Origin: Pseudomonas aeruginosa
GTDB taxonomy: Bacteria > Pseudomonadota > Gammaproteobacteria > Pseudomonadales > Pseudomonadaceae
Assembly: GCF_001457615.1 (NCBI RefSeq)
Contig: NZ_LN831024.1
Coordinates: forward strand, 2,610,001-2,642,000
Direction of reading: 5' to 3'
Length of the DNA stretch: 32,000 bases
The notes beneath the pieces were generated by a model. It saw only the letters and a program-made list of their open reading frames with translations, did no database searches and had not been told where the DNA came from. The position numbers were made by a program, and so were the translations under genes. Position 1 is the first letter of the stretch. Each line of letters begins with the position of its first letter. Below, piece after piece: positions 4,042-30,464 of the stretch.

Positions 4042-4080
4042 AAAAAAATAAACCAGGCTCCGGGCGCCGGCAAAACGGCG
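4042..4080 (-). terminator. probable terminator after the PstS/OmpA fusion gene
   Basis: On the minus strand, a GC-rich hairpin CGCCG-TTTTGC-CGGCG (4080-4065) and a weak CCGG-AGC-CTGG stem are followed by TTTATTTTTTT (4053-4042). The geometry is imperfect. Confidence 0.4.
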
Positions 4081-4102
4081 AGGTTACAAAGTGCTACAGC
4101 GT

Positions 4103-7920: not shown

Positions 7921-8145
7921 GGTGGGCGTCCTGGCAAAAACAGGAATGCTAGCCCAGCCGGGGGATGCCTGGCGACCCTGGAGGCGCTGTGCTAGTGTCC
8001 GCCGGGTACCCGATGGCTGTGTGGCTTGGCGCCTTGCCGGCCCTGTGGTCTGCCGCGGACGGGGATGGCCAGGCCATCCGCTCGACCAATCGCCGTGGCG
8101 AAGCGTGCGTGTCGCTGCGCCTGCGGCCGACAAGGAATGCGTTCC

Positions 8146-8778: not shown

Positions 8779-8911
8779 GCGTTCCCCCGGACGCGCGAGA
8801 AAAGCCATGCCTGTCAGGCGCTTGGCGTCATAAAACCCGAATGTCAGGAGGTGGTCGGCGGCGTCCGCGCAAATCTGGACGCGCGCCACCCGCCTGCGTA
8901 GCATCCGCGCC

Positions 8912-10651
8912 ATGAGACTGACTCAAGGATTGTTCCGGTTCCCGCTGGCCGGGCTGCTGTGCCTGAGTACGGCCGCCTTCGCGGAGAGCCAGCTTAGCGT
9001 GCGCGTCACCCCCGCCAATGCCGCCCTGAAGGCCAATATCGAGGCCTATGTGGGTAGCCTCGGCGAGCGGGACGAGGCGGCGTTGCAACGTTTCCGCCGC
9101 AATGCCGAGGCGCAGGCGGAAAAGGCGGCCCAGGCGCTCGGCTACTTCCAGGCGCAGATCGACAGCGAGGTGAAGGACGGCAAGCCGCCGAAGCTCACGC
9201 TCAAGGTAGTGCCCGGCGAGCCCGTGCGCCTGCGCCAGGTGAATATCCAGGTGCTCGGCGAGGCCGCCAGCCTGGAGAGCTTCCGCTTGCCGTCGGGCAA
9301 GCAGCTGAAACCGGGCGCGAAGCTGAACCAGGGTGTCTACGAGGATGCCAAGCGGCTGATCCAGAACCAGGCCTCGCGCTACGGCTTCTTCCAGGGCCGC
9401 TTCAGCACCCAGCGCCTGAGCATCGATCCGCGCGCCGGCATCGCCGACATCGACCTGGTCTACGACAGCGGCCAGCGCTACACCTTCGGCAAGGTGAGCT
9501 TCGACGGCGACTCGATCATCGAGGAAGAACTGTTGCGCCGCATGGTGCCGTTCAAGGCCGGCCAACCCTATGACTCCGAACTGATCGCCGAACTCAACCA
9601 GAACCTGCAATCCAGCGGTTACTTCGAGGGCGTGCGGGTCGACGCCGCGCCGACCCAGGCGCAGGCCGACGGCGCGCGCCAGGCGATCCCGGTAGCGGTC
9701 CGGCTGGAGGCGCGCAAGCCCCGGACCATGGGCGTCGGCCTCGGTTTCTCGACCGACGTCGGGGCGCGCGCGAGGTTCAACTGGACCCGCCATTGGGTGA
9801 ATGCCGAAGGACATAGCCTGGGATTCGAGTCGGAAATCTCCGCACCACGGCAGAACGTCGGCGCCTGGTACGAGATTCCCCTCGATCCGCCGCTCACCGA
9901 CAAGCTGCGCTTCACCAGCGGCTACCAGTTCGAAGACCTGGTCGACACCGAGAGCAAGCTGCTGACCCTTGGCGGCGAATGGCACAGCAAGCGGCCCGAT
10001 GGCTGGCAGCGGGTGGTTTCGCTGAACTGGATGCGCGAGGAGTACAAGCTGGGCGACGACTCCGGGCTGAGCAGCTTCCTGATGCCGGGGATCGGCTACT
10101 CGCTGCTGGAGACCGACAACAAGGTCGACCCCAGCCATGGCTACCGCCTGCAGTTCAACGTCAAGGGGGCGAAGGAAGGCCTGCTGGCCGACGCCGACGT
10201 CCTCCATGTCGACGCCATGGCCAAGGGCCTGACCAGCTTCGCCGGCGGCCATCGCCTGCTCGGCCGCCTGCAGGTAGGCGGAATCGCCACCAACGACTAC
10301 AAGTCGATCCCGCCCTCGCTGCGCTTCTTCGCTGGCGGCGACCAGAGCGTGCGTGGCTACGACTACCGGACGCTGTCGCCGGAGAATTCCGATGGCGACA
10401 AGATCGGCGGCCGCTACATGATCGCCGGCAGCGTCGAGTATCAATATCCGCTGGCCGAGCGCTGGCGCCTGGCGACCTTCGTCGACCAGGGCAACGCCTT
10501 CAACTCGCTGGACTTCCCGTCGATCAAGACCGGGGTCGGCTTCGGCGTGCGCTGGGTCTCGCCGGTCGGCCCGTTGCGCCTCGACCTGGCCCATGCGCTC
10601 GACGACGACGGCGGTTTCCGCCTGCACTTCTCCATGGGGCCAGAACTGTGA
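8912..10651 (+). CDS. tamA: translocation and assembly module outer-membrane subunit TamA (Omp85 family)
   Basis: 579-aa ORF with a signal peptide ([12 protein letters not shown]). It has POTRA-like repeats ([10 protein letters not shown]...) and a C-terminal beta-barrel with [12 protein letters not shown] and a terminal aromatic-rich strand. Its stop overlaps the tamB start (GTGA). Confidence 0.9.
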
Positions 10652-13600
10652 AGGCGCTGAAGATCACCTTGCTGGCCATAGTCGGGCTGCTCCTCGCGCT
10701 GCTCCTGGGACTCGCTGCGCTGCTCGGCACCCAGACCGGCAGCGCCTGGCTGCTCGGCCGCGTGCCGGGCCTGCAGGTCAGCGGCTTCGAGGGTCGCCTC
10801 GGTGGCGCCTGGCAGGCACAGCGGCTGTCCTGGGCGCAGGACGGTACGCAACTGGTCGTCGAGCGGCCTGAACTGCGCTGGTCGCCGGCCTGCCTGGCGG
10901 GGCTGCGCCTGTGCCTGCAGCGGGTGGCCGCCGAACGGGTCGCGCTGGACCTGCCGCCGAGCGGCGACAGCGCCGACAGCGGGCCGATCAGCCTGCCGAC
11001 GCTGAAACTGCCGCTGAGCATCGAACTCGGCGAAGTGGCGGTCGGCAGCTTCCTGCTCGACGGCAACCAGCAGGTCGCCGAACTCAAGCTGGCGGCCCAT
11101 TGGCTGGCCGACGGCCTGCACATCGACTCGCTGACGGCGCGGGGCTTCGGCCTGGACCTGGCGCTCCAGGGGCGCTTGCAGCCGAGCGGCGACTGGCCCT
11201 TGCAGGCCGAAGCCACGCTCGGCCTGCCCGCTCCCGAAGACAAGCCGTGGAAGCTGGCCGTCCAGGTCGGCGGTGAACTGCAGAAGGCGCTGACCCTGAA
11301 AGGCCGCAGCAGCGGTTACCTGGACGGCAGCCTGGAAGGACAGTTGCAGGCGCTGGCGGAAAACCTGCCGGCACGATTGCTGATCCGCGCCGACGGTTTC
11401 AAGGGGGCGGCCGGACTACCGGACACCTTGACCCTGAATGCCATCCAGCTCGATGCCAGCGGCGATCTCAAGAGCGGTTACCTGATCCGCGGCGGCGCCA
11501 GCCTGCCGGGCGAGGGCGGGGCGGTGGCGTTGAGCCTGGACGGGCGGGTCGACGCCCAGGGCGCGGATATCCGCCAACTGCGCCTGGACGCTGGCGGCGA
11601 GCAGCGCCTGGAGCTGGTCGGACGCCTGGACTGGCGCGAAAGCCTGGCCGCCGACGCGACCCTGGACTGGAAGGATTTCCCCTGGCTGCGCCTGTATCCG
11701 CTGGCGGAGCCGCCGCCGGTGACGCTGAAGACCTTCAAGGCGGAAGTGCATTACCAGGACCAGCGCTACCTGGGCAATTTCAGCGCGGCGGCGAGCGGTC
11801 CGGCGGGCGACTTCACGCTGGCCAGCCCGGTGTCCGGCGACCTCGTCCAGCTCAACCTGCCGTCGCTGCAGCTCCGCGCCGGGCAAGGCCAGGCCGAGGG
11901 GAGGGTGACGTTGCGTTTCGACAATGGCGTGGCTTGGGATACCGCCCTGCAGCTCAGCGAACTGAACCCGGCTTACTGGGTCGCCGAGCTGCCGGGTTCA
12001 CTGGCCGGTCCCTTGCGTAGCCAGGGAAGTGTTCGCGACGAGCGGCTGGCGTTGGGCGTGGATCTCGACGTCAAGGGCCGCCTGCGCGGCCAGCCGGCGC
12101 TATTCCAGGCGCGCGCCGAAGGCGAGGGGCAGCGCTGGACGCTGGGCAACCTCGACCTGCGCCTGGGGGATAACAAGGTTCAGGGCAGCGGGGCGCTCGA
12201 CCAGCGCCTGCAAGGCCGCCTGGACATCGCCCTGAACCGTCTCGGCCAGCTTTGGCCGCAACTCTTCGGTCGCCTCGACGGACGCCTCGACCTGGCTGGC
12301 AGCCTCGCGGCGCCGCAAGGCAGGCTGAACCTCAAGGGACAGCAGATCGCCTACGCCGAGCAGCGCATCGCCGGCCTCGACCTGCAGGCGAACCTCGATG
12401 CCCGGCAGAACGGCACCCTGGCGCTGGTCGCTTCCGGCCTGCGCAGCGGCGAAACCGACCTCGGCCTGTTCAAGGCCAATGCCCGCGGCGACCAACGCCG
12501 CCAGCAACTGGAACTGGACCTGCAAGGTGCCTTGCTCAAGCTCGGCCTGGCCTTCGACGGGCAACTGGAGCGCGGCAACTGGCGCGGTCGCCTGGCGCGC
12601 GGCGAGTTGAGCAGTGGCGGCCAGGACTGGAAACTACAGCAGCCGGCGCGCCTGGAGCGGTTGGCCGACGGCAGGGTCAATTTCGGCGCACATTGCTGGG
12701 TATCCGGCGCCGCCAGCCTCTGCGGCGGCGAGCAGCGCCTGCTGCCCGAGCCGCGGCTGCGCTACACCCTGCGCGACTTCCCGCTGGACAGCCTGAAGCA
12801 ATGGTTCCCCGAGGACTTCGCCTGGCAGGGCAAGCTGAACGGCGACCTGCAACTGGACGTTCCGGCCCGCGGCCCGAGCGGCGTGGTCAGCCTGGACGCC
12901 GGCAGCGGTACGCTGCGCCTGCGCGACCAGGGCCAGTGGGTCGACGTCGGCTACGACAGCCTGCGCCTGGAGAGCCGGTTGGCGCCCAACCGCGTCGATA
13001 CCTCCCTCGACTTCCGCGGACCGAAGCTCGGCGAGTTGCGGGTGCAGGCGCAGATCGACCCGCGCCCGGCGAGCAAGCCGCTGAGCGGCGAGTTCAGCCT
13101 GGCCGGCCTCGACCTGTCGCTGGCGCGCCCGTTCGTGCCGATGGTGGAGAAACTGCAAGGCAGGCTGAACGGCAGCGGCCGGCTGTCCGGCGGCCTGCTG
13201 GCGCCGCGGGTCGACGGACGGGTGACGCTGAGCGACGGCAACATTGGCGGCGGCGAGCTGCCGACCAGCTTCGAGAACCTTTCCCTCGACGCTCGCATCG
13301 CTGGCGAAAGCCTGGAACTCGGCGGCGGCTGGCGCAGCGGCAGGTACGGCCAGGGCAGCCTGTCCGGCAACCTGAGCTGGGGCGAGGCGCTGAACGTCGC
13401 CCTGAACATCCGTGGCAACCGCCTGCCGGTGGTGGTCGATCCCTATGCGCAACTGGAGGTGGAACCGGACCTGAAGATCGGCATGGCCGGCCAGGAGCTG
13501 GCGATCTCCGGCAAGGTCCTGGTGCCGCGTGGCGACATCACCATCCGCCAGTTGCCGCCATCCACGGTCAAGGTCTCCGACGACGCGGTGATCGTCGGCT

Positions 13601-14313
13601 CCGAGCAGCCCGAGCAGCAGCCGCTGAAGATGAAGATGGACATCGATGTCGAGGTCGGCCAGGACAAGCTGGCGTTTTCCGGCTTCGGCCTCAGCGCCGA
13701 ACTGGCCGGCCACCTGCACATCGGCGACAACCTGGATACCCGCGGCGAGCTGAACCTGAACAAGGGCCGCTATCGTGCCTACGGCCAGCGCCTGACGATC
13801 CGTAGGGCGCGGCTGTTCTTCGCCGGACCGATCGACCAGCCGTACCTGGATATCGAGGCGATCCGCCGGGTCGACGACGTGGTCGCCGGCCTGCGCCTGA
13901 CCGGCAGCGCCGAGCAGCCGACCAGCGCGGTATTCTCCGAACCGGCGATGAGCCAGGAGCAGGCGTTGTCCTACCTGGTGCTGGGGCGGCCGATGAGCAC
14001 CGGCGAAGACAGCAACATGCTCGGCGAGGCGGCCCTGGCCCTGGGCCTGGCCGGTAGCGCACCGCTCACCGGGGAAATCGCCAAGCAGCTCGGCATCCAG
14101 GACTTCCAGCTGGACACCGAGGGCACCGGCAACAGCACCAGCGTGGTCGCCAGCGGGAATATCACCGACAAGCTCAGCCTGCGCTATGGTGTTGGAGTGT
14201 TCGAACCGGCAAATACCATCGCCTTGCGCTACCAGTTGACCAAACGCCTCTATCTCGAAGCGGCGAGCGGCCTGGCCAGTTCGCTGGACCTGTTCTTCAA
14301 GCGCGATTTCTGA
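10648..14313 (+). CDS. tamB: translocation and assembly module inner-membrane subunit TamB (AsmA-like, DUF490 C-terminus)
   Basis: GTG 10648 overlaps the tamA TGA (10649-10651). The N-terminal anchor is [28 protein letters not shown] long beta-rich repetitive body follows, then a DUF490-like end (GRYRAYGQRLTIRRARLFFAGPIDQPYLDIEA...LFFKRDF). This gives 1221 aa. Confidence 0.9.
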   Translation: MKALKITLLAIVGLLLALLLGLAALLGTQTGSAWLLGRVPGLQVSGFEGRLGGAWQAQRLSWAQDGTQLVVERPELRWSPACLAGLRLCLQRVAAERVALDLPPSGDSADSGPISLPTLKLPLSIELGEVAVGSFLLDGNQQVAELKLAAHWLADGLHIDSLTARGFGLDLALQGRLQPSGDWPLQAEATLGLPAPEDKPWKLAVQVGGELQKALTLKGRSSGYLDGSLEGQLQALAENLPARLLIRADGFKGAAGLPDTLTLNAIQLDASGDLKSGYLIRGGASLPGEGGAVALSLDGRVDAQGADIRQLRLDAGGEQRLELVGRLDWRESLAADATLDWKDFPWLRLYPLAEPPPVTLKTFKAEVHYQDQRYLGNFSAAASGPAGDFTLASPVSGDLVQLNLPSLQLRAGQGQAEGRVTLRFDNGVAWDTALQLSELNPAYWVAELPGSLAGPLRSQGSVRDERLALGVDLDVKGRLRGQPALFQARAEGEGQRWTLGNLDLRLGDNKVQGSGALDQRLQGRLDIALNRLGQLWPQLFGRLDGRLDLAGSLAAPQGRLNLKGQQIAYAEQRIAGLDLQANLDARQNGTLALVASGLRSGETDLGLFKANARGDQRRQQLELDLQGALLKLGLAFDGQLERGNWRGRLARGELSSGGQDWKLQQPARLERLADGRVNFGAHCWVSGAASLCGGEQRLLPEPRLRYTLRDFPLDSLKQWFPEDFAWQGKLNGDLQLDVPARGPSGVVSLDAGSGTLRLRDQGQWVDVGYDSLRLESRLAPNRVDTSLDFRGPKLGELRVQAQIDPRPASKPLSGEFSLAGLDLSLARPFVPMVEKLQGRLNGSGRLSGGLLAPRVDGRVTLSDGNIGGGELPTSFENLSLDARIAGESLELGGGWRSGRYGQGSLSGNLSWGEALNVALNIRGNRLPVVVDPYAQLEVEPDLKIGMAGQELAISGKVLVPRGDITIRQLPPSTVKVSDDAVIVGSEQPEQQPLKMKMDIDVEVGQDKLAFSGFGLSAELAGHLHIGDNLDTRGELNLNKGRYRAYGQRLTIRRARLFFAGPIDQPYLDIEAIRRVDDVVAGLRLTGSAEQPTSAVFSEPAMSQEQALSYLVLGRPMSTGEDSNMLGEAALALGLAGSAPLTGEIAKQLGIQDFQLDTEGTGNSTSVVASGNITDKLSLRYGVGVFEPANTIALRYQLTKRLYLEAASGLASSLDLFFKRDF

Positions 14314-14447: not shown

Positions 14448-15083
14448 ATGATTTCCGTCTATCAACTCAAACCGCGCTTTCAGAATCTTCTTCGTCCCGG
14501 CGTGCAGCGCCTCTACCGGCGCGGCATCACTGCCAACCAGGTGACCCTGGCGGCCTGCCTGCTGTCGCTGCTGGTCGGCGCGCTGGTCGCCGGTTTCGCC
14601 AGCCATCTCTGGCTGTTCGCCCTCGTTCCGCTGTGGATGTTCCTGCGCATGGCGCTGAACGCGGTGGACGGCATGCTCGCCCGCGAGTTCGGCCAGAAAT
14701 CCGACCTGGGCGCCTACCTCAACGAACTCACCGACGTGATCGCCGACAGCGGCCTGTACCTGCCGTTCGCCCTGTTGCCGGGAGTCAACCCGCTGTGGGT
14801 GGTGCTGGTGGTGCTGCTGGCGGTGATCAGCGAATATGCCGGCGCGCTGGGCACCATGGTCGGCGCTTCGCGCCGCTACGACGGCCCGATGGGCAAAAGC
14901 GACCGGGCGCTGTGTTTCGGCGTGATCGGCGCCGGGGTGGCCAGCGGCCTTTTGCCGCTGGCCTGGATCGACTGGCTGATGTTGCTGATCGCGGCCCTGC
15001 TGTTGCTGACCATCGGCAACCGCGTGCGCCAGGGCCTGGCCGAGCTGGCCGCGAGTCGACGGGGCAGCGACGGCCAGGCCTGA
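14448..15083 (+). CDS. CDP-alcohol phosphatidyltransferase family protein (E. coli YnbA-like), non-canonical motif
   Basis: 211-aa polytopic membrane ORF. The motif is NAVDGMLAREFGQKSDLGAYLNELTDVIAD, compared with the canonical DxxDGxxAR-x8-GxxxDxxxD. AAGGA lies 9 nt upstream of the ATG. Confidence 0.85.
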   Translation: MISVYQLKPRFQNLLRPGVQRLYRRGITANQVTLAACLLSLLVGALVAGFASHLWLFALVPLWMFLRMALNAVDGMLAREFGQKSDLGAYLNELTDVIADSGLYLPFALLPGVNPLWVVLVVLLAVISEYAGALGTMVGASRRYDGPMGKSDRALCFGVIGAGVASGLLPLAWIDWLMLLIAALLLLTIGNRVRQGLAELAASRRGSDGQA

Positions 15084-15172
15084 GAGGGAACGGGCGAACG
15101 CCATGGAGGTGGGCGCCCGCAGGAAGCAACCCCGCCGGGATCCCGGCCGGGGCAACGACATAGGGACATCAC

Positions 15173-16933
15173 ATGCGCGACGTACAGGAACTGCGTTTCA
15201 CCACCCACGACGGGGTAGAGCTCTTCTACCGCCACTGGCCGGCCAGCCGCCCGGCGCCGGACGGCACGCGCCAGGCGGTGCTGCTGTTCCACCGCGGCCA
15301 TGAGCACTCCGGGCGGATCGCCCACCTGGTCGACGAACTCGACCTGCCGGAACACGACTTCTTCGCCTGGGACGCCCGTGGCCACGGCCTCTCGCCAGGC
15401 GCCCGCGGCGACAGCCCGAGCTTTGCCACCAGCGTGCGCGACGTACAGACCTTCGTCGACCATATCCAGGCCGTCCACGGTATCGCCGAAGAGCGGATGG
15501 CGGTGGTGGCGCAGAGCGTCGGCGCGGTGCTGGTTTCCACCTGGGCCCACGACTACGCGCCGAAGGTGCGCGCACTGGTGCTGGCTTCGCCGGCGTTCCA
15601 GGTCAAGCTCTATGTGCCGTTCGCCCGCAGCGGGCTGAAACTGATGCGCCTGTGGCGCGGCAATTTCTTCGTCAACAGCTATGTCAAGGCACGCTTCCTC
15701 AGTCACGACCCGGAGCGGATCGCCTCCTACGACAGCGACCCGCTGATCGCCAAGGCGATCTCGGTGAACGTCCTGCTCGGCCTCTACGAAGCTGCCGAGC
15801 GGGTGGTAGCGGACGCACAGGCGATCCAGATTCCCACCCAACTGCTGATTTCCGGGGCCGACTTCGTCGTCCATCGTGCGCCGCAGGAGCGCTTCTTCGA
15901 GCGTCTCGGCAGCCTGCGCAAGGAAAAGCACATCCTGCCCGGCTTCTTCCACGACACCCTTGGCGAGCGCGATCGTCACCTGGCCGTCGGCCGTGCCCGG
16001 CGCTTCCTCCTCGAGGCATTCGCCACGGCACCTGAACGACCGAGCCTGCTCGATGCCGACCGCCTGGGCCATACCTGCGCCGAGGCCGAGGCGCTGGCCG
16101 CGCCGTTGCCGAAGAACTCGCCGCGCGATCTCTACTGGCGCGCCACCCGTGCCGGGCTGCGCCTGGGCAGCCTGTGGTCGGACGGGGTCAAGCTGGGCTT
16201 CGACACCGGCTTCGATTCCGGCAGCACCCTCGACTATGTCTACCGCAACCAGCCCAGCGGCAGCGGCCCGCTGGGTCGCCTGATCGACCGCAACTACCTG
16301 GACTCCATCGGCTGGCGCGGCATCCGCCAGCGCAAGCTGCACGCCGAGGAGCTGCTGCGCCTGGCCATGCAGCGGTTGCGCGAGGAGCAGCGCGAGGTGC
16401 GCATCGTCGACATCGCCGCCGGCCACGGCCGCTACATCCTCGAAGCCCTGCAAGGCGTCGAGCCGCTGCCGGAAAGCATCCTCCTGCGCGACTACAGCGA
16501 GATCAACGTGCGTGACGGCAGCGCCCTGATCGAAAGCAAGGGCCTCGCCGGCATCGCCCGCTTCGTCAAGGGCGATGCCTTCGATCGCGCCGACCTGGCG
16601 GCGCTGCAACCGAAGCCGAGCCTCGGGGTGGTTTCCGGGCTCTACGAGCTGTTCGCCGACAACCGCATGGTCGGCGACTCCCTCGCCGGCCTCGGCGAGG
16701 CGCTGGAGGAGGGCGGCTACCTGGTCTACACCGGACAGCCCTGGCACCCGCAGCTGGAACTGATCGCCCGCGCGCTGACCAGCCACCGCCAGGGCCAGGC
16801 CTGGGTGATGCGGCGCCGGACCCAGGCGGAAATGGACCAGCTGGTGGCCGCCGCCGGCTTCCGCAAGATCACCCAGCGGGTCGACCAGTGGGGCATCTTC
16901 AGCGTATCGCTGGCGCAGAAGGTCGCCCGCTGA
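15173..16933 (+). CDS. fusion protein: N-terminal alpha/beta hydrolase (lysophospholipase/monoacylglycerol-lipase type) plus C-terminal class I SAM-dependent methyltransferase (YnbC-like)
   Basis: 586 aa. The hydrolase part has LLFHRGHEHSGR (oxyanion-hole type), a nucleophile elbow AQSVG, and GFFHDTL (His). The methyltransferase part has VRIVDIAAGHGRY (motif I), LLRDYS (post-I acidic residue) and VVSGLYELF. Confidence 0.8.
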   Translation: MRDVQELRFTTHDGVELFYRHWPASRPAPDGTRQAVLLFHRGHEHSGRIAHLVDELDLPEHDFFAWDARGHGLSPGARGDSPSFATSVRDVQTFVDHIQAVHGIAEERMAVVAQSVGAVLVSTWAHDYAPKVRALVLASPAFQVKLYVPFARSGLKLMRLWRGNFFVNSYVKARFLSHDPERIASYDSDPLIAKAISVNVLLGLYEAAERVVADAQAIQIPTQLLISGADFVVHRAPQERFFERLGSLRKEKHILPGFFHDTLGERDRHLAVGRARRFLLEAFATAPERPSLLDADRLGHTCAEAEALAAPLPKNSPRDLYWRATRAGLRLGSLWSDGVKLGFDTGFDSGSTLDYVYRNQPSGSGPLGRLIDRNYLDSIGWRGIRQRKLHAEELLRLAMQRLREEQREVRIVDIAAGHGRYILEALQGVEPLPESILLRDYSEINVRDGSALIESKGLAGIARFVKGDAFDRADLAALQPKPSLGVVSGLYELFADNRMVGDSLAGLGEALEEGGYLVYTGQPWHPQLELIARALTSHRQGQAWVMRRRTQAEMDQLVAAAGFRKITQRVDQWGIFSVSLAQKVAR

Positions 16934-18282
16934 TGGCGCCGCGCGAGCCGGGGGTACTGAAGCGGGCGGTGCTCTGGCTGCTGTTCCTCGGCCCGTTCTT
17001 CTTCGCCAGCTATGGCCTGGCCAACTGGTTGACCAGCCAGCGCGGCGACGTCGGCAGCCTGGTCTTCGACTGGGAACGCGGGATGCCGCTGTGGCCCTGG
17101 ACCATCCTGCCGTACTGGTCGATCGACCTGCTCTACGGCCTGTCGCTGTTGTTGCCGCGGGACAAGCGCGAGCTGGACACCCACTGCCTGCGCCTGCTCA
17201 GCACCCAGGTGCTGTCGGTGACCTGCTTCCTGCTGTTCCCCCTGCGCTTCACCTTCGAACGGCCGGAACTGGGCGGCGTGTTCGGCTGGCTGTTCGACGT
17301 GCTGATGGGGTTCGACAAACCGTACAACCAGGCACCGTCGCTGCACATCGCCCTGCTGGTAGTGCTCTGGGTCTGCTACGCGCGCTACGCCAGCGGCGCC
17401 TGGCGCTGGCTGCTGCATGGCTGGTTCGCGCTGATCGGGCTGTCGGTGCTGACCACCTGGCAGCACCATTTCATCGACGTGCCCACCGGCGCGCTGGCCG
17501 GTTGGCTGTGCGTCTGGCTGTGGCCGCAGGCGCAGCCCGCGCCGTTCGCCCGCGCCAGTCTGAGCCGCGACCGGCAACGGCGGCGGCTGGCCGCTCGCTA
17601 CGGCCTCGGCGCGCTGGCCTGCGCCGCCGTCGCCTTTGCCGTCGGCGGTGCGGCGTTGTGGCTGTGCTGGCCGGCGCTGGCGCTGGCGCTGGTGGCGCTG
17701 AACTACCTGCTGTTCGGCGCCGCCGGCTTCCAGAAGGGCAGCACTGGCCGCCTGAGCGCCGCCGCGCGCTGGCTGCTGGCGCCATATCTGCTTGCCGCGC
17801 GGATCAACGCCTGGCTCTGGACCCGTCGCCGGCCGCAGCCGGACGAGGTGCTGCCGGGCCTCTGGTTGGGGCGCCTGCCGTCGTCCGCGGAACTGGCCGA
17901 CGGCCGCTTCCGCGCATTGCTCGACGCTACCGCCGAACTTTCCTGCGAGCCGCAGGGGCTGGCCTATCGCAGCCTGCCGTTGCTCGACCTGGTCGCGCCG
18001 GACGTCGAGGACTGCCGGCGCGCCGCGGTGCTGATCGACGAACTGCTGGCGCAAGGGCCGCTGCTGGTGGCCTGTGCCCTGGGCTATTCGCGCAGCGCCA
18101 CGCTGGTCGCCGCCTGGCTGCTGCTCAGCGGCCGCGCGGCGGACGTCGAGTCGGCCGTGGCCGTGTTACGTCGGGCGCGACCGCAAGTGCTGCTGGGCGA
18201 GGCCCAGCGGCGGACCCTCGCGGCGCTGAGCGGGAGCGTGCCGGAGCCATCGGCGGAACTGGGCGAGGTGCGCCATGCCTGA
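16933..18282 (+). CDS. fusion membrane protein: PAP2-superfamily domain plus C-terminal dual-specificity (CX5R) phosphatase domain (YnbD-like)
   Basis: ATG 16933 overlaps the upstream TGA (TGATG). The PAP2-type motifs are PSLH (17335-17346) and QHHFIDVPTG (17461-17490), within a polytopic N-terminal half. The P-loop VACALGYSRS has Cys at 18073-18075 and Arg at 18091-18093. Confidence 0.8.
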   Translation: MAPREPGVLKRAVLWLLFLGPFFFASYGLANWLTSQRGDVGSLVFDWERGMPLWPWTILPYWSIDLLYGLSLLLPRDKRELDTHCLRLLSTQVLSVTCFLLFPLRFTFERPELGGVFGWLFDVLMGFDKPYNQAPSLHIALLVVLWVCYARYASGAWRWLLHGWFALIGLSVLTTWQHHFIDVPTGALAGWLCVWLWPQAQPAPFARASLSRDRQRRRLAARYGLGALACAAVAFAVGGAALWLCWPALALALVALNYLLFGAAGFQKGSTGRLSAAARWLLAPYLLAARINAWLWTRRRPQPDEVLPGLWLGRLPSSAELADGRFRALLDATAELSCEPQGLAYRSLPLLDLVAPDVEDCRRAAVLIDELLAQGPLLVACALGYSRSATLVAAWLLLSGRAADVESAVAVLRRARPQVLLGEAQRRTLAALSGSVPEPSAELGEVRHA

Positions 18283-18727
18283 GCAAACCCTGGCCCTGGT
18301 GGCGGCCCTGCTGCGCCGTGGCCGCGAGCTTGACCGGCTGTCCGCCGCACTGACCCTGCTGGCCATCGGGCTGGGCCTGTACCAGGCCGTGCAGGGCATC
18401 GGCTGGCGCTATTTCGCTGCGGCGATGCTGGCGATCGCCATGCTCGGCCTGTGGCAGAAGTACTGGGCGCTGCGAGTGGCCCTGGACGCCGAACTGTTCG
18501 AACGTTTCAGCCGCGTCGGCGACAGGCTGGAAGCGCAGACCCAAGACCTGGACCGGGCCCTGGCCGATCTCGGCCTGGCCCGAGCGGACGCCGCAGGGCG
18601 CACCTGGAACCAGCGCAGCCGCGGCGCCCTGCGCCTGCTACGCTGGCAGGCGCTGGCCTGTGGCGCCCAGTTCCTGCTGGCCTTGTCGTGCCTGTTGTCG
18701 ATCCCTCTATTCAACGCTCAAACCTGA
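18275..18727 (+). CDS. small membrane protein, unknown function (150 aa)
   Basis: ATG 18275 overlaps the upstream gene by 8 nt. It has three hydrophobic segments (LTLLAIGLGLY, FAAAMLAIAMLGLW, AQFLLALSCLLSIPLF) around a charged helical stretch. Codon bias is consistent with coding. Confidence 0.65.
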   Translation: MPEQTLALVAALLRRGRELDRLSAALTLLAIGLGLYQAVQGIGWRYFAAAMLAIAMLGLWQKYWALRVALDAELFERFSRVGDRLEAQTQDLDRALADLGLARADAAGRTWNQRSRGALRLLRWQALACGAQFLLALSCLLSIPLFNAQT

Positions 18728-18738
18728 AGAGTCTTCCC

Positions 18739-19368
18739 ATGCTCGAATCAGTCGTCGCCTATGGCATCATCGCCGGCGCCCGCGCCATCACCGGCTTGCG
18801 CAGCCTCTGGCTGGGCACCACGCCGATCCCCAAGCAACGCATCTATTACGCCAACCACAGCAGCCATGGCGACTTCGTCCTGCTCTGGGCCTCGCTGCCG
18901 CCGGAGGTGCGGCGGCGTACCCGGCCGGTGGCGGGCGCCGACTACTGGAACAAGGCCGGCCTGCGCAGCTACGTGATCAACAAGGTGTTCAACGGCGTGC
19001 TGGTCGACCGCCAGCGCAGCGAGGCCAATGCCAATCCGCTCGAACCCCTCGACCGCGCCCTGGACGGCGGCGATTCGCTGATCATCTTCCCCGAGGGCAC
19101 CCGCAACCTGGACGACGAGGTCAAGCTGTTGCCATTCAAGAGCGGTATCTACCACCTGTCCCTGGCCCACCCGGACGTCGAGCTGGTGCCGGTCTGGCTG
19201 GCCAACCTCAACCGGGTCATGCCCAAGGGCCGCATGCTGCCGTTGCCGCTGCTCTGCACCCTGAGCTTCGGCAAGCCGCTGGTCGCCACGGCGGAAGAAG
19301 GCAAGGAGGCGTTCCTCGAACGAGCGCGCATGGCCCTGCTGGACCTGGCGCCGGAAGAGGAGGCCTGA
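18739..19368 (+). CDS. PlsC-type (lyso)phospholipid acyltransferase
   Basis: ORF 18451..19368, trimmed to ATG 18739 (MLESVVAYGI...), 11 nt after the previous stop. It carries the H(X)4D block NHSSHGD and the FPEGTR block. Confidence 0.85.
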   Translation: MLESVVAYGIIAGARAITGLRSLWLGTTPIPKQRIYYANHSSHGDFVLLWASLPPEVRRRTRPVAGADYWNKAGLRSYVINKVFNGVLVDRQRSEANANPLEPLDRALDGGDSLIIFPEGTRNLDDEVKLLPFKSGIYHLSLAHPDVELVPVWLANLNRVMPKGRMLPLPLLCTLSFGKPLVATAEEGKEAFLERARMALLDLAPEEEA

Positions 19369-19369
19369 G

Positions 19370-20305
19370 ATGAACGAACAGACCTGGATGCTCTTCGGCG
19401 GGATCGGCGCGCTGCTGCTGCTCGCCTCGCTGGTCGGCTTCGTCCTCAAGTGGCGCGCCGGTCCCGGCCCGAACGCGGTGATCGACAACCTGAACGCACG
19501 GATCAACGCCTGGTGGGCGATGGTCCTGGTGATCGGTTTCGCCTTCTGGCTTGGCCAGGCGGCGGTGATCCTGCTGTTCTATGGCGTGTCGTTCTACGCC
19601 CTGCGCGAGTTCATCACCCTCACCCCGACCCGGCGCAGCGACTACCCGGCGCTGGTGGCGGCGTTCTACTTCGTGCTGCCGATGCAGTACCTGCTGATCT
19701 ACATCGACTGGTACAGCATGTTCTCGATCTTCATCCCGGTGTACGTGTTCCTGCTGTTGCCGATCCTCGCCTCGCTGGGCGGCGACACCAAGCACTTCCT
19801 CGAACGCGCCTCGAAAGTGCAGTGGGGCCTGATGCTGGCGGTGTTCTGTATCTCCTTCGTGCCGGCGCTGCTGACCCTCGACATCCCCGGCTTCGAGGGG
19901 CGCAACCTGCTGCTGATCGCCTACCTGGTGATCGTCGTGCAGCTCTCCGACGTGATGCAGTACATCTGCGGCAAGCTGTTCGGCAAGCGCAAGATCGCTC
20001 CCAACCTGTCGCCGTCGAAGACCGTCGAAGGCTTCGTCGGCGGCATCGCCCTGGCCACCGCCATCGGCGCCTCGCTGTGGTGGATCACCCCGTTCAACCT
20101 CTGGCAGGCGGCGCTGATCGCGCTGCTGATCAACCTGCTGGGCTTCTTCGGCGGCCTGGTGATGTCGGCGATCAAGCGCGACCGTGGGGTCAAGGACTGG
20201 GGGCACATGATCGAAGGCCACGGTGGCATGCTCGACCGCCTGGACTCGGTGTGCTTCGCCGCGCCGATCTTCTTCCACGTGGTGCGCTACTGGTGGACGC
20301 CCTGA
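19370..20305 (+). CDS. phosphatidate cytidylyltransferase (CDP-diglyceride synthase) paralogue, YnbB-like
   Basis: 311-aa polytopic ORF starting 1 nt after the acyltransferase stop. It carries the CdsA signature SAIKRDRGVKDWGHMIEGHGGMLDRLDS and SPSKTVEG. Confidence 0.9.
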   Translation: MNEQTWMLFGGIGALLLLASLVGFVLKWRAGPGPNAVIDNLNARINAWWAMVLVIGFAFWLGQAAVILLFYGVSFYALREFITLTPTRRSDYPALVAAFYFVLPMQYLLIYIDWYSMFSIFIPVYVFLLLPILASLGGDTKHFLERASKVQWGLMLAVFCISFVPALLTLDIPGFEGRNLLLIAYLVIVVQLSDVMQYICGKLFGKRKIAPNLSPSKTVEGFVGGIALATAIGASLWWITPFNLWQAALIALLINLLGFFGGLVMSAIKRDRGVKDWGHMIEGHGGMLDRLDSVCFAAPIFFHVVRYWWTP

Positions 20306-24200: not shown

Positions 24201-24698
24201 ATGGCTCAAGTGACTCTCAAGGGCAACCCGGTCAACGTCGATGGCCAGCTCCCGCAGAAAGGCGCCCAGGCTCCGGCCTTCAGCCTGGTCGGCGGCGACC
24301 TCGCCGACGTGACCCTGGAAAACTTCGCCGGCAAGCGCAAGGTGCTGAACATCTTCCCCAGCGTCGACACCCCGACCTGCGCCACCTCGGTGCGCAAGTT
24401 CAACGTCGAGGCCGGCAAGCTGGCCAACACCGTGGTGCTGTGCATCTCCGCCGACCTGCCGTTCGCGCAGAAGCGCTTCTGCGGCGCGGAAGGCCTGGAG
24501 AACGTAGTCAACCTGTCGACCCTGCGCGGTCGCGAGTTCCTCGAGAACTATGGCGTGGCCATCGCCAGCGGCCCGCTGGCCGGCCTGGCCGCGCGCGCCG
24601 TGGTGGTGCTCGACGAGCAGAACAAGGTGCTGCACAGCGAACTGGTCGGCGAAATCGCCGACGAGCCGAACTACGCGGCGGCCCTGGCGGCTCTCTGA
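24201..24698 (+). CDS. tpx: thiol peroxidase (atypical 2-Cys peroxiredoxin)
   Basis: ORF 24117..24698, trimmed to ATG 24201 ([11 protein letters not shown]...) with AGAAGGA upstream. The active site is [10 protein letters not shown] and the resolving Cys is in [14 protein letters not shown]. This gives 165 aa. Confidence 0.95.
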
Positions 24699-24796
24699 GC
24701 CCCACGGCCAACCCGCTTCGTCCCATGACTGTCAGCCAGGCTGGCTGGTAACGGGCGAACCCGAATCCCTTGGCTGCTCGCCTCGGGCCATGAGCA

Positions 24797-24845
24797 GGGC
24801 GGATAATCGCGGCGCGGTCATCCGCCCTGCGTCGCAGAGACGCAG
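24797..24845. repeat. tandem hairpins between convergent tpx and aminotransferase; the first is REP-like (GGGCGGAT...ATCCGCCC)
   Basis: GGGCGGAT (24797-24804) pairs with ATCCGCCC (24820-24827). CTGCGTC (24827-24833) pairs with GACGCAG (24839-24845). There is no T run. They probably act as terminators or RNA stabilisers. Confidence 0.5.
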
Positions 24846-24847
24846 CG

Positions 24848-25972
24848 CTAGCGCATGGCGACCTGGTGGCGCCGGCTGACGCTGGCGAAGGCGCTCCGGA
24901 ACGCCTGCATCTCTTCCTCGCTGCCTACCGTCACGCGGACCCAGTTGGGCCAGGAGGCCCACGGGCGGCCGACGTGCACCCGCTGTTTCTCCAGTTCGGC
25001 GATGACCAGCTCGGCGGGACGGCGCATATCCACCATGAAACAGTTGGACTGTGAGGCGGTGCAGCGGAAGCCCTGCTGGCGCAGCCAGGCGATGGTGCGC
25101 TCGCGGACCTCTGCGTTCTGCTGCTTGCGCCGTGGCACCAGGTCGTCGTCACGCAGGCTTTCCAGCCCGGCGTGGGCGGTTGGCGAGGGCACCACGTTGT
25201 GGCCGCCGAAGCGCTCCAGCCGCGCCAGCAGCTGCGGATGCCCGATGGCCAGGCCGAGCCGGGCGCCGGCCATCCCGTAGAGTTTCGAGAAGGTACGCAG
25301 GACCAGCACATCCTGGCGCTGGACGGCCAGGCCAACGACGCTGGGTGCGTCGGAAAAATGGATATACGCCTCGTCGACCAGCACCACGCTGCGCTCGGGC
25401 TTGCGTTCGATCGCCCTGACGATCCGCTCGTGCGGGGTGAGGGTGCCGGTCGGGTTGTTCGGGTTGCAGATATAGATCAGCCCGGCGTCGCGTTGCGCGG
25501 CGGCGAGCATGCGCTCGATGTCGTGGGCCGCCTCGGCGTCCAGCGGCACGGCAGCGACCTTCGCCCCTTGGGCCTGGGCGGCGCCAACCACGGAGTCGTA
25601 GGAGGGATCGGCGATGACCAGGCCGCGCTCCTTGCCGGTGAACGCCGCGACGGCGTATTGCAGCGGCTGGCGCGAGCCGCAGTAGGCGTGCACGCATTCG
25701 GCGGGGATGCCGTTCTGCTTGGCGAACAGGCCGACCAGGGCGTCCTGCGCGTCGTAGTCGTAGCGACCGCAGAGCGCGGCCGCCCGCTGCATGGCGGCCC
25801 TGGCCTTGGCGGAGGGGCCGTAGGGGCTTTCGTTGAAATCCAGGAAGGTCTCTTGCGGCTTGCCGGCGGCGCTTGTCGCGCCGCTCCCGGCGAAGGCTCG
25901 CGGGCTCAGCAGGATGCTGCTGGAGGCCAGGGCGGTCAGGGTCACGAACGAACGACGACTCAAAGCGGGCAT
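24848..25972 (-). CDS. PLP-dependent class I/II aminotransferase (HisC-like) with a twin-arginine signal peptide
   Basis: ORF 24848..26035, trimmed to ATG 25972, which has a strong SD GGAGGTG 6 nt upstream. The N-terminus is MPALSRRSFVTLTALASSSILLSPRAFA. Conserved blocks are NPNNPTG and TFSKLYGMAGARLG (PLP lysine). Confidence 0.85.
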   Translation of the reverse strand: MPALSRRSFVTLTALASSSILLSPRAFAGSGATSAAGKPQETFLDFNESPYGPSAKARAAMQRAAALCGRYDYDAQDALVGLFAKQNGIPAECVHAYCGSRQPLQYAVAAFTGKERGLVIADPSYDSVVGAAQAQGAKVAAVPLDAEAAHDIERMLAAAQRDAGLIYICNPNNPTGTLTPHERIVRAIERKPERSVVLVDEAYIHFSDAPSVVGLAVQRQDVLVLRTFSKLYGMAGARLGLAIGHPQLLARLERFGGHNVVPSPTAHAGLESLRDDDLVPRRKQQNAEVRERTIAWLRQQGFRCTASQSNCFMVDMRRPAELVIAELEKQRVHVGRPWASWPNWVRVTVGSEEEMQAFRSAFASVSRRHQVAMR

Positions 25973-26168
25973 AGCTTCACCTCCGTGTACCGAATGGGAT
26001 ATGCGTGCGGTGGGTTCCTCTCGGGCGTGTGTCACCAGAGTGGATAACGAGGAGGGAGTCGGTCCGTTTATGGTGGCGTGATAATGGCGCCGGAATATCG
26101 GCGGGGGATCTTCGGATTGCGCACCAGGCGCCCCCCGGCGGCTCGCCGCCCGGGAGCGCCGCGCGGGC

Positions 26169-27494
26169 TCAGAGCGTGAGGGTGAAGCGCCCGGTCAGCG
26201 CGCCCGGCAGGTGCGTCGAGTCGGTCTGGCGTTCGCCGTAGGTATTGCTGGACAGGCGCAGTTCGCGCTCGTGGCTGAGGTCTTCCAGGTGGGCGCCGAG
26301 GAAGCTGTACAGGCTGTCGTCGAAGCGCATGGTGCTGACCGGTGCCCGGATCTGGCCGTTCTCCACCCAGAAGGTGGCGAAGCGGGTCATTCCGGTCAGG
26401 CGCGCGGCGGGCATGTCCGAGTAGTTCAGGTACCACAGGTTGCCGATGTACAGGCCGGTATCCAGGGCCTCGAGGATGCGCGCCTGCTCCAGGCTGCCGC
26501 CGGCCATGTCCAGCGCCGTGGGCGCCTCGTTGGCGCCGGCGCCATTGGCTACCAGGCCGTATTCGCGGGCGCTGCGCGAACTCACCAGGCGTCCGCTCAG
26601 GCGGCCGTTGCCGACCAGTTCGACCTCGGCGCGCGGCGAGCCTTCCGCGCTGAATGCCGGGGAGGGCGAGGTGGCAGGGCGCTCGGCGAGGTTCAGCAGC
26701 GGGCTGAGCAGGGCGTCGCCGTTCTGCAGGCGTTGCAGGGGGCTTTCGCCGGTAGCCAGGGCGCGCGCGGAGAAACCGCCCCAGCAGAGCATCTGCATGA
26801 CTTCCTCGAGCGCCGCCGGCGCCAGGTAGGCGCGATAGTCGCCGGGGCGCAACTGGCGCAGCGGCTTGCCCAGGTGGCCGAGCTGCTCCCGGGCCTGTTC
26901 GAAGCGCCGGGCGAAGGCTTCGTCGTCCCAGCGCTGGCCGGCGTAGTCGGCCTTCACCGCCTGGCCGTTGCCATGGAACAGGCTCCAGTCGAAGTTGAAG
27001 CTGCTGCCGGCATGCCAGCCGAAGGCGCCCCAGGAGTTGGCGAAGCCACGGAACAGCGGTCCGGCGGCATAGATGCCGACCAGGTCGAGGTCGCGCGCCC
27101 GGCGTTCGAGGCTGGCCAGCAGCGCGCCGCTGTCGGGCGCTGCGCCGAGGTCCTGGTTCTCTCGCTGCCAGGCCGAGGTGTCGAGCAGCAGATAGGGATC
27201 GGCGGGAATCCAGGCCAGGCTCTGGCGCAGTTGCCGAAGGCCTTCGACCAGACGCTGGCGGTCTTCTTCCGGCGCGCCGGAGAGCGTCAGGTCGAGGCTC
27301 GCCTGGCGTTCGTCGCGGATCAGCCGGAGCAGCGCGCTGGCCTGGCGCACCCGACCGGCCTGGCGCACCCGCGCCCGGTTGAAGCGGATGAACTCGGAGT
27401 CCTCGGCGCTGTACCAGAGGGTGAAGTCCTCGCCCTCGGCCAGGTGTCGGCGCAGGTCCTCGGCGAGGGCTTCGAAATGCTGTCTCTGGTGCAT
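26169..27494 (-). CDS. PmbA/TldE-like (TldD partner) metalloprotease-family protein
   Basis: Only the 441 aa from ATG 27494 (MHQRQHFEALAEDL...) are coding. The ATG overlaps the TldD-like stop (TGATG). The C-terminus is PmbA_TldD-fold-like (GLYIGNLWYLNYSD...TGMTRFATFWVENGQI). It has no HExxxH motif. Confidence 0.75.
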   Translation of the reverse strand: MHQRQHFEALAEDLRRHLAEGEDFTLWYSAEDSEFIRFNRARVRQAGRVRQASALLRLIRDERQASLDLTLSGAPEEDRQRLVEGLRQLRQSLAWIPADPYLLLDTSAWQRENQDLGAAPDSGALLASLERRARDLDLVGIYAAGPLFRGFANSWGAFGWHAGSSFNFDWSLFHGNGQAVKADYAGQRWDDEAFARRFEQAREQLGHLGKPLRQLRPGDYRAYLAPAALEEVMQMLCWGGFSARALATGESPLQRLQNGDALLSPLLNLAERPATSPSPAFSAEGSPRAEVELVGNGRLSGRLVSSRSAREYGLVANGAGANEAPTALDMAGGSLEQARILEALDTGLYIGNLWYLNYSDMPAARLTGMTRFATFWVENGQIRAPVSTMRFDDSLYSFLGAHLEDLSHERELRLSSNTYGERQTDSTHLPGALTGRFTLTL

Positions 27495-28927
27495 CAGGCG
27501 TCTCCCCCGAATACGTCCACATCGCTGAATACGCAGGCCGGCGAGGCGTGGCCGACACGGATCACCTGGTTCGGCTCGCCCTTGCCGCAGTAGGGGGTGC
27601 CGAGCACCTCGAAGGTGCCGGCGTCGCCCACCGCGCTGAGGTTGCGCCAGAACTGCGCGGAGATGCCCCGGTAGTTGGGGTTCTTCACCACGCCCTTGAG
27701 TTCGCCGTCCTCGATCAACTGGCCCCATTCGCAGCCGAACTGGAACTTGTTGCGTGCGTCGTCGATCGACCAGGAGCGGTTGTAGGACATCAGCACCCCG
27801 CGCTCGATACCGCCCACCAGCTGCGCGAAGCTCTTGTCGCCGGGCTCCAGGTTGAGATTGGCCATGCGGTCGATGGGCGCGCGGTTCCAACTGCTGGCGC
27901 GGCTGTTGGCGACGCCCTCCAGGCCGCTGCGGTGTTGCGACAGGGCGCCGCCGAGCGGGCGCAGCAGGCGGCCTTCGCGGATCAGGTATTCCTTGCGCGC
28001 GGGGCTGCCGTCGTCGTCCTGGCGGTAGCTGGCCAGCTCCTCGGGGATTTCCGGGTCGAAGCTGACGTTGAGCAGGCTGGAGCCGTACTGGTAGCGACCG
28101 AAGTCCTCGGTCTTGATGAAGCTGGTACCGGCGTAGTTGCGCTCGTCGCCGAGGATGCGATCCAGCTCCAGCGGGTGGCCGATCGACTCGTGGATCTGCA
28201 GGATCATCTGGTCCGGCATCAGCAGCAGGTCGCAACGGCCGCTCGGGGTGTTCGGCGCCGCCAGCAGTTGCAGGGCCTGGTCGGCGATGCGCGGCGCGGC
28301 GCCGACCAGGCCGAGGCGCTCGATCACTTCGGCGCCGCCCTGCTGGCCGGCATGGTGGCCGCCGAAACTGCGGGTCTGGCTGTCATGGCCGTCGTAGGCG
28401 GTGACGCTGGCGCCGGGATAGACGAAGCGCTGCTCGTGGTATTGCTCGGCGCCGGCGCTGTTCAGGTAGAGCTGTTCCTGGCGGCTGACTTCGAGGAATA
28501 CGCTCCAGTTCACCAGGCGCTCGTCGCGCGGCACCTTGGCGGACTCCTCGGCGAGCAGTTCGTAGCACTCGGCGAGGGAGGGGAAAGGGGCGTCCTGGTT
28601 CGGCGAGCGATACTGCGAGCGGCCGCTTGCCGGCGGCAATCCGCGGACGTCGAACAGGGCGTGCCGGGCGATCCGCTCGGCTTGCCGCTCGGCCTGCTCC
28701 AGGGCGGCCTGCAGGCCGGCCGCGGAGAGATCGTTGGTGGCGGCGTAGGCTTCCACGCCGTTCAGCCGTACGCAGAGCATGGCGCCGCGGTCCTGGCTGA
28801 AGTGCGGCGGTTCGCTGACGTTGCGGCGCACCGAGAGGTACTCGCCGCTACGCTGGACGTAGCGCAAGGAGTGGAATTCGGCGCGGCTGCGGAGCGCCGC
28901 GAAGCGGTGTTTCAACGGGTCGATCAT
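27494..28927 (-). CDS. TldD-like zinc metalloprotease
   Basis: 477 aa. It carries the HExxxH-type motif IHESIGHPLELD and a C-terminal GxC motif region (GTPYCGKGEPNQVIRVGHASP) typical of TldD. Confidence 0.8.
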   Translation of the reverse strand: MIDPLKHRFAALRSRAEFHSLRYVQRSGEYLSVRRNVSEPPHFSQDRGAMLCVRLNGVEAYAATNDLSAAGLQAALEQAERQAERIARHALFDVRGLPPASGRSQYRSPNQDAPFPSLAECYELLAEESAKVPRDERLVNWSVFLEVSRQEQLYLNSAGAEQYHEQRFVYPGASVTAYDGHDSQTRSFGGHHAGQQGGAEVIERLGLVGAAPRIADQALQLLAAPNTPSGRCDLLLMPDQMILQIHESIGHPLELDRILGDERNYAGTSFIKTEDFGRYQYGSSLLNVSFDPEIPEELASYRQDDDGSPARKEYLIREGRLLRPLGGALSQHRSGLEGVANSRASSWNRAPIDRMANLNLEPGDKSFAQLVGGIERGVLMSYNRSWSIDDARNKFQFGCEWGQLIEDGELKGVVKNPNYRGISAQFWRNLSAVGDAGTFEVLGTPYCGKGEPNQVIRVGHASPACVFSDVDVFGGDA

Positions 28928-29183: not shown

Positions 29184-30464
29184 ATGACTCCAACGACCGG
29201 TAAATCCAAGTTCCGTACCCTGCGCCCGTGGCTGATCACCGCCCTGGCCTTCGCCGCCGTGATCGGCCTGGTGATGTGGCTGGCGGCGCCCGCCTCGGCA
29301 CCGTCCTCCGACGGGCGACCCGGTCGCGGCGGCAAGCCGGGCGCCGCGCTGCCCAAGGCCAACGCGCTCACCGTCGGCGTGGCCAGGGTGGAGCAGGGCG
29401 ACCTGGCGCTGCATTTCAACGCGCTTGGCACCGTCACCGCCTTCAACACGGTGAACGTCAAGCCGCGGGTCAACGGCGAGCTGGTCAAGGTGCTGTTCCA
29501 GGAGGGGCAGGAGGTCAAGGCCGGCGACCTGCTGGCGGTGGTCGACCCGCGTACCTACAAGGCGGCGCTGGCCCAGGCCGAGGGCACGCTGATGCAGAAC
29601 CAGGCGCAACTGAAGAACGCCGAGATCGACCTGCAGCGCTACAAGGGGCTGTACGCCGAGGACTCGATCGCCAAGCAGACCCTGGATACCCAGGAAGCCC
29701 AGGTCCGCCAGTTGCAGGGCACCATCCGTACCAACCAGGGCCAGGTCGACGACGCCCGCCTCAACCTGACCTTCACCGAGGTCCGCGCACCGATTTCCGG
29801 GCGCCTCGGCCTGCGCCAGGTGGACATCGGCAACCTGGTCACCAGCGGCGATACCACGCCGCTGGTGGTGATCACCCAGGTCAAGCCGATCTCGGTGGTG
29901 TTCAGCCTGCCGCAGCAGCAGATCGGCACCGTCGTCGAGCAGATGAACGGCCCCGGCAAACTGACGGTCACCGCGCTGGACCGCAACCAGGACACGGTTC
30001 TCGCCGAAGGCACCCTGACCACCCTGGACAACCAGATCGACACCACCACCGGCACGGTCAAGCTCAAGGCGCGCTTCGAGAACGCCGACGGCAAGCTGTT
30101 CCCCAACCAGTTCGTCAACGTGCGCCTGCTGGCGCAGACCCTCAAGGGCGTGCTGACCATTCCGGCCAACGCCGTGCAGCGCGGCACCAACGGTATCTAT
30201 GTGTACGTGGTCGGCGCCGACAACAAGGTCAGCCAGCGCAGCGTCGCCATCGGCACCAGCGAGAACGAGCGGGTGGTGGTGGAAAGCGGCCTGAAGGCCG
30301 GCGAGCAGGTGGTGGTGGAAGGCACCGACCGCCTGCGCGACGGTATGGAAGTGCGTGTCGCCGAGGCCTCCCCGCAGGTCCTCGAGGGCGAGCCGCAGAA
30401 ACCGCAGACTGGCCGCCCCAGCGGCCTCCAGGGCGACTCGGTGGGTAGCGGGAGCGCTGAATGA
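29184..30464 (+). CDS. muxA: RND efflux periplasmic adaptor (membrane fusion protein), MdtA-like
   Basis: 426 aa. It has an N-terminal anchor, a lipoyl/hairpin region ([34 protein letters not shown]...), and [13 protein letters not shown]. Its stop overlaps the next ATG (ATGA). Confidence 0.9.

Follow-up and report, generated by a model that had tools for sequence, protein, structure and literature searches.

The Tat-exported HisC-like aminotransferase of a Pseudomonas aeruginosa chromosomal locus, very probably the periplasmic pyoverdine transaminase PtaA

The locus described here raises the question of which substrate a transaminase meets when it is exported from the cytoplasm. The stretch of DNA analyzed (the window) comprises 32,000 nucleotides of the Pseudomonas aeruginosa chromosome (assembly GCF_001457615.1, contig NZ_LN831024.1, positions 2,610,001 to 2,642,000 of the forward strand). 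A gene on its minus strand was described in a first-pass annotation, made from the sequence alone, as encoding a HisC-like aminotransferase that depends on pyridoxal 5'-phosphate (PLP), carries a twin-arginine translocation (Tat) signal peptide, and acts in the periplasm on an unknown substrate. The gene can be identified with high confidence as ptaA (PA2531 in strain PAO1, PA14_31820 in strain PA14), encoding the periplasmic pyoverdine transaminase A. The gene, its Tat signal and the biochemical role of the family are already known, and the annotations of NCBI and UniRef already use the name PtaA.

The protein matches the Pfam domain Aminotran_1_2 at 1.9e-41, and Aminotran_5 only weakly. Its top match in NCBIfam is the equivalog model NF051461 (pyoverd_PtaA, "pyoverdine biosynthesis transaminase PtaA"), with 595 bits against a cutoff of 500; the match spans residues 1-364 of the protein, including the signal peptide, and positions 1-358 of the 359 in the profile. 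Five other Pseudomonas proteins, used as controls, scored 522-684 bits on this model, and relatives from Stenotrophomonas, Xanthomonas and Solibacter scored 399-417 bits, about 90-100 bits under the cutoff. The PtaA model thus discriminates, with the Pseudomonas proteins above its cutoff and the non-Pseudomonas relatives below it. The latter three relatives fit best to the broader subfamily model PRK09105, and a relative from the Flavobacteriaceae matches neither model at an E-value of 1e-80 or better. The window protein also exceeds the cutoff of PRK09105 (NF006580; 561 bits against 444). We read this subfamily as a broad family of HisC-like aminotransferases bearing Tat signals, in which PtaA is a Pseudomonas clade. 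A P. aeruginosa protein cluster with 124 member sequences on 132 contigs matches the window protein at 100% identity over all 374 amino acids, and the UniRef name of this identical protein is pyoverdine biosynthesis transaminase.

The mature part of the protein contains the NPNNPTG block and a lysine block that reads TFSK230LYGMAGARLG. In an alignment of 24 Pseudomonas homologues with 50-98% identity to the query (alignment A1), the PLP fold-type I residues K230, D200, Y203, N172 and R238 are invariant, as is S229. Together with the Aminotran_1_2 match, the two blocks bear out the description of the product as a HisC-like PLP aminotransferase. A cytoplasmic histidinol-phosphate aminotransferase (HisC) or aromatic aminotransferase would have the same fold and motifs; such an enzyme would be translated from a start further downstream, or its N-terminal segment would be no export signal. 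Many homologue entries are indeed named histidinol-phosphate aminotransferase, and the best-matching structures are annotated as HisC-like. On the hisC equivalog model TIGR01141, however, the protein scores 220.7 bits, under that model's own cutoff of 276.55. A sequence search of the Protein Data Bank returned no PtaA structure; the matches were HisC-like and phenylalanine-aminotransferase-like chains, none above 140 bits. The closest solved structure is 3ly1 ('putative histidinol-phosphate aminotransferase'), which matches at 140 bits and aligns only from query residue 34 (chain residue 11) on; the Lys230 block aligns with its PLP-lysine region. As a separate observation, 3ly1 may itself not be a true HisC but represent the mature domain of a further family member that is exported by Tat.

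The N-terminus bears more directly on the location of the enzyme. The predicted signal peptide has a short n-region that ends in S-R-R-S-F-V, an h-region of 15 residues with many Ser and Thr and only moderate hydrophobicity (mean Kyte-Doolittle value 1.71), and a c-region with one Arg that ends in A-F-A, the cleavage site, before GSG. M1, R6, R7 and S8 are invariant in A1 and the remainder of the signal peptide varies freely; judged from the aligned sequences, the conservation of the twin-arginine (RR) signal is far beyond chance. Gimenez et al. (2018, Sci Rep, PMC6085387) list PA14_31820/PA2531 among 34 Tat-dependent proteins, and the peptide given there is letter for letter MPALSRRSFVTLTALASSSILLSPRAFA. 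It was chosen by published Tat predictors and validated experimentally, in an assay in which each signal peptide was fused to the Escherichia coli amidase AmiA. In that study PA2531 appears as 'aminotransferase' under 'other activities'; the name PtaA has zero occurrences and no link to pyoverdine is made. The amidase-fusion check proposed in the first-pass annotation is therefore already in the literature, where its outcome supports Tat export, and the SRRxFV motif, hydrophobic core and AxA site described there are all present, followed by GSG. Its view of a folded, cofactor-loaded PLP enzyme in the periplasm was right in kind, because the Tat signal peptide is genuine.

A cytoplasmic HisC is hard to reconcile with these data, since the exact peptide drove Tat export of the amidase reporter and since the RR pair and M1 are invariant in the family. 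A translation start downstream of the signal region, which had been named as a result that would overturn the export model, is made extremely improbable by this invariance, by the Shine-Dalgarno sequence in front of the assigned ATG and by the position of the first internal Met (residue 61), which lies within the conserved domain. Taken together, we consider a cytoplasmic HisC or aromatic aminotransferase extremely improbable.

The choice of this ATG, originally based on its Shine-Dalgarno sequence, is supported by the homologues: the aligned M1 is the start of all 24 Pseudomonas proteins in A1, and the public P. aeruginosa protein also has 374 amino acids. The G+C content at third codon positions (GC3) in the ptaA frame is 0.87, typical of coding sequence in the window, which has a GC content of 67.6%. 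With the Pfam domain and the GC3 of 0.87 both on the minus frame, a plus-strand open reading frame (ORF) at 25172..26047 was dismissed as a spurious antisense frame caused by high GC content. The longest ORF listed for the gene itself begins at an in-frame GTG at 26035. Initiation there would give a 395-residue precursor with an n-region longer by 21 residues, still targeted to Tat; the 63-nt extension is open in the 87%-identical orthologue of an aeruginosa-group locus (L088) too, and long n-regions are possible in Tat peptides. The GTG lacks a Shine-Dalgarno sequence, however, whereas GGAGGTG precedes the ATG. Between the window and L088, differences by codon position are 6/2/3 in the 63 nt from GTG to ATG, as opposed to 28/27/88 in the ptaA coding sequence, a pattern which indicates that the extension is not under coding constraint. 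The GTG also starts as little as 12 nt 3' of the CGT in the putative promoter described below, which by the usual promoter geometry would place it close to or at the site where transcription is expected to begin. The GTG was thus rejected, and its use as the start is scarcely credible. Even with it, Tat targeting would probably be unaffected, because the RR motif would still lie in the N-terminal signal region.

Upstream of the gene, a candidate promoter element for the sigma factor PvdS resembles the iron starvation (IS) box, whose consensus is TAAAT-N16-CGT (PMC2235872). It is the sole match to TAAAY-N16-CGT in the 32-kb window, where 0.15 matches are expected and at least one is found in 15% of shuffles. 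Because this figure is weak for a single box, six other Pseudomonas ptaA loci were compared. In all six, an IS-box-like element lies 60-117 nt 5' of the ptaA ATG; four are perfect TAAAT-N16-CGT, one has TAAAC and one TTAAT. In an upstream region of 260 nt, the relaxed pattern is met by chance with a probability of 1-7% and the strict pattern with one of 0.02-0.4%; the background over 221 kb is 0.03 and 0.006 per 260 nt, respectively. The genes next to ptaA in other loci include a cytochrome oxidase with queC, rpoD with genes that we read as davBA-like, a TonB receptor, sodB and others. Retention of the box at seven ptaA loci with unrelated neighbours speaks for control of ptaA by a PvdS-type factor throughout the genus and, in the window, for a promoter of its own in the 196 nt that separate ptaA from the PmbA-like gene. 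A scan of 24600..26300 for sigma-70 promoters gave none. Two terminator-like matches near ptaA were set aside, as they lie inside the coding sequence and on the wrong strand.

The work that defined PtaA is reportedly that of Ringel, Draeger and Brueser (J Biol Chem, 2017), with P. fluorescens A506. A Tat-exported PLP aminotransferase is unusual biology, hence the 2017 paper; for the window this matters little. According to a review that summarises Ringel et al. 2017 (PMC6206403), the gene of the PLP transaminase PtaA as a rule lies apart from the pvd clusters, and the Tat pathway carries the enzyme folded and with its cofactor bound. In P. fluorescens it turns the N-terminal glutamate side chain of pyoverdine into alpha-ketoglutarate, in a branch that is independent of PvdN and parallel to it (PMC6206403). 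In subsequent work by that group, periplasmic tailoring by PtaA is taken as established (PMC9305348). The substrate can accordingly no longer be called unknown, as the first-pass annotation had it. Its choice of PvdN as the precedent holds insofar as PvdN is also a Tat-exported PLP enzyme of pyoverdine maturation; the closest precedent is PtaA itself. For P. aeruginosa, the alpha-ketoglutarate isoform of pyoverdine is known to be made (PMC6206403), and its formation requires an enzyme such as PtaA. Published transcriptome groupings place PA2531 in common to the PvdS iModulon and an iron-acquisition iModulon, and in a P. aeruginosa plaF mutant the abundance of PtaA drops together with that of PvdN, PvdM, PvdT and PvdR.

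A route from gene to product can be proposed. Under iron starvation, PvdS would transcribe ptaA from its own IS-box promoter, as the motif and the published transcriptome grouping suggest. From family knowledge, the 374-residue precursor would fold and bind PLP at Lys230 in the cytoplasm. The signal peptide with its SRRSFV motif would then direct the folded holoenzyme to the Tat translocase, for which this exact peptide is competent in the E. coli amidase reporter, and signal peptidase I is predicted to cut after AFA28. In the periplasm, the enzyme would transaminate the free alpha-amino group of the gamma-linked N-terminal glutamate on the chromophore of pyoverdine or dihydropyoverdine. This would yield the alpha-ketoglutarate isoform, in a branch that runs beside the succinamide branch of PvdN; the reaction was demonstrated for the orthologue of P. 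fluorescens A506. By orthology we infer that PA2531 likewise turns the pyoverdine glutamate side chain into alpha-ketoglutarate in P. aeruginosa. For PtaA to regenerate PLP from pyridoxamine 5'-phosphate, some periplasmic amino acceptor must be present.

Several points weigh against assigning this function to the window gene. The protein is just about 53-55% identical to PtaA of the fluorescens group and is thus a relatively divergent PtaA; the PtaA model beats the generic PRK09105 model by just 34 bits (595 against 561), compared with a margin of about 180 bits for protein P0054. The IS box of the window has one mismatch (TAAAC) and would, taken alone, be met by chance in 15% of shuffles, and no pvd genes adjoin ptaA in the window, which is usual for ptaA (PMC6206403). 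The biochemistry of PtaA was done in P. fluorescens A506, and the results of Ringel et al. 2017 are taken here via reviews, including PMC6206403. The Tat validation concerned a fusion of the signal peptide to AmiA and not the native protein in P. aeruginosa (PMC6085387). Neither a PA2531 deletion tracking pyoverdine isoforms nor enzymology of the P. aeruginosa protein was found in the accessible literature.

These points leave some room for a Tat-exported aminotransferase of the PRK09105 family whose main substrate is not pyoverdine, with pyoverdine tailoring absent or secondary. The nearly equal scores on the two models would suit such an enzyme, as would the occurrence of PtaA in species without pyoverdine synthesis, where it may serve other periplasmic pathways (PMC6206403). 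So would the distant relatives, by which we mean the non-Pseudomonas proteins with 29-49% identity among the matches listed from a profile search of species-representative genomes. Among these matches, RR-bearing relatives occur in many bacteria, namely in Stenotrophomonas, Xanthomonas, Caulobacteraceae, Acidobacteriota, Verrucomicrobiota, Gemmatimonadota and Bacteroidota. To our knowledge, the groups that hold them make no pyoverdine. In nearly all of approximately 78 of the relatives listed, an RR pair followed by a hydrophobic stretch precedes the conserved NxNE block by about 40-60 residues, for instance as SRRMFLR in L018 and SRRRFLR in L021; L033 has HRKF in place of the RR pair. On the other side, the window protein lies over the PtaA cutoff, which the three non-Pseudomonas relatives scored miss by about 90-100 bits. 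The PvdS-type promoter element, the place of PA2531 in the PvdS iModulon, the fall of PtaA with the proteins of the pyoverdine pathway in the plaF mutant, and the need for such an enzyme to form the alpha-ketoglutarate isoform all argue for pyoverdine. A main substrate other than pyoverdine is therefore judged improbable, and the identification as PtaA is retained.

A weaker form of the idea deserves somewhat more credit. PtaA could be just one branch, specialised for pyoverdine, of a far larger and practically unstudied group of Tat-exported, HisC-like periplasmic transaminases, and the enzyme of P. aeruginosa might in addition accept a second periplasmic amine or keto acid unrelated to pyoverdine. 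We regard this as rather unlikely. A second periplasmic substrate is conceivable because the RR-bearing family is wide and its genes stand alone; a role outside pyoverdine has already been raised in general terms in the review (PMC6206403). Clustering of the neighbours in 80 non-Pseudomonas loci (L004-L083) revealed no conserved partner gene. What recurs in those loci is the aminotransferase itself and spurious antisense ORFs, and the largest true neighbour clusters comprise six loci each. As a side observation, a gene for a protein of about 536 amino acids lies near the aminotransferase in six loci, for example at 3402..5012 (plus strand) in L021 (Xanthomonas floridensis). The protein has an N-terminal RR motif (MTRRQLLARIGMTAGG...) and by eye resembles a flavin amine oxidase. 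Should all six loci belong to Xanthomonadaceae, plain synteny would account for the recurrence.

The surroundings of ptaA are constant in P. aeruginosa. The exact window protein is present in 21,141 blocks of the genome collection, in the fixed order muxA with two resistance-nodulation-division (RND) pump genes, a TldD-like gene, a PmbA-like gene, ptaA, tpx, a Na/Ala symporter gene and a LysR gene, and the gene order around ptaA in the window is the same. Coordinates of the main features are given in Table 1. In the window, muxA is encoded on the opposite strand at a distance of 3.2 kb from ptaA. MdtABC-OpmB of P. putida, the counterpart of the muxA locus, contributes to pyoverdine secretion according to the literature. 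The proximity of muxA and ptaA is absent from four of five other Pseudomonas ptaA loci, and only L088 has it; being so restricted, it may be a coincidence. The products of the TldD-like and PmbA-like genes both contain PmbA_TldD domains and either score far under the NCBIfam TldD cutoffs or have no NCBIfam match, and the N-terminus of the TldD-like protein has no evident signal peptide. The same pair occurs at L088, the locus with the 87%-identical orthologue, and is not beside ptaA in other species.

Elsewhere in the window, the region 7108..14313, which looks like ordinary P. aeruginosa chromosome and is unrelated to ptaA, holds a TamA (Omp85/POTRA) and TamB pair with a divergent Exo_endo_phos gene. 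A same-strand run at 14448..20305 (plus strand) encodes a CDP-alcohol phosphatidyltransferase, an alpha/beta-hydrolase with methyltransferase, a dual-specificity phosphatase, a protein of 150 amino acids without a Pfam match, an acyltransferase and a CTP_transf_1 protein. This run looks lipid-related in the corresponding loci and could constitute an operon dedicated to an unusual phospholipid.

Table 1. Coordinates of ptaA, its sequence elements and neighbouring genes in the window
Feature	Position	Strand	Remarks
ptaA coding sequence, 374 aa plus TAG stop	24848..25972	-	ATG 25972..25970, TAG 24848..24850
Shine-Dalgarno sequence GGAGGTG	25984..25978	-	5 nt 5' of ATG; same place in L088
Predicted Tat signal peptide, residues 1-28, MPALSRRSFVTLTALASSSILLSPRAFA, then GSG	25889..25972	-	identical to the PA14_31820/PA2531 peptide
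Twin-arginine motif SRRSFV, residues 5-10	25943..25960	-	R6, R7 and S8 invariant in A1
NPNNPTG block, residues 170-176	25445..25465	-	PLP-contacting fold-type I motif; invariant in A1
TFSKLYGMAGARLG block with Schiff-base Lys230	25253..25294; Lys230 codon 25283..25285	-	
Putative IS-box-like PvdS element TAAAC-N16-CGT, TAAACGGACCGACTCCCTCCTCGT	26047..26070	-	75-98 nt 5' of ATG
TldD-like and PmbA-like gene pair	26169..27494 and 27494..28927	-	directly upstream of ptaA
muxA	29184..30464	+	NCBIfam MdtA/MuxA equivalog, 418 bits against a cutoff of 391; two RND pump genes follow

Compared with known systems, the window gene is the same gene as PA2531/PA14_31820 of the Tat survey (PMC6085387); the signal peptide is identical and nothing of substance differs. 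With PtaA of P. fluorescens A506 (NF051461) it shares the family by curated equivalog, the length class, the S/T-R-R-S-F/L motif, the PLP lysine, the NPNNPTG block, the status of a stand-alone gene and a putative upstream promoter of the IS-box type. It differs from it in the identity of only about 53-55% and in the TAAAC, not TAAAT, of the box; the neighbours are tpx and the TldD/PmbA-like genes here and other genes elsewhere. HisC (TIGR01141) resembles the window protein in fold-type I, class I/II architecture and motifs, but the hisC cutoff is not reached. Cytoplasmic HisC enzymes are not known to carry a signal peptide, whereas the window protein has a conserved Tat signal. PvdN (PA2394) presumably belongs to a different, class V-like aminotransferase class, while the window protein falls into Pfam Aminotran_1_2. 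Like PtaA, PvdN is a folded PLP enzyme that is exported by Tat and acts on the pyoverdine glutamate side chain in the periplasm, but it forms the succinamide directly and not by transamination, and its gene lies inside the pvd cluster (PMC6206403). The signal peptides of the two enzymes are unrelated, that of PvdN being MNDRRTFLKQAG... (PMC6085387).

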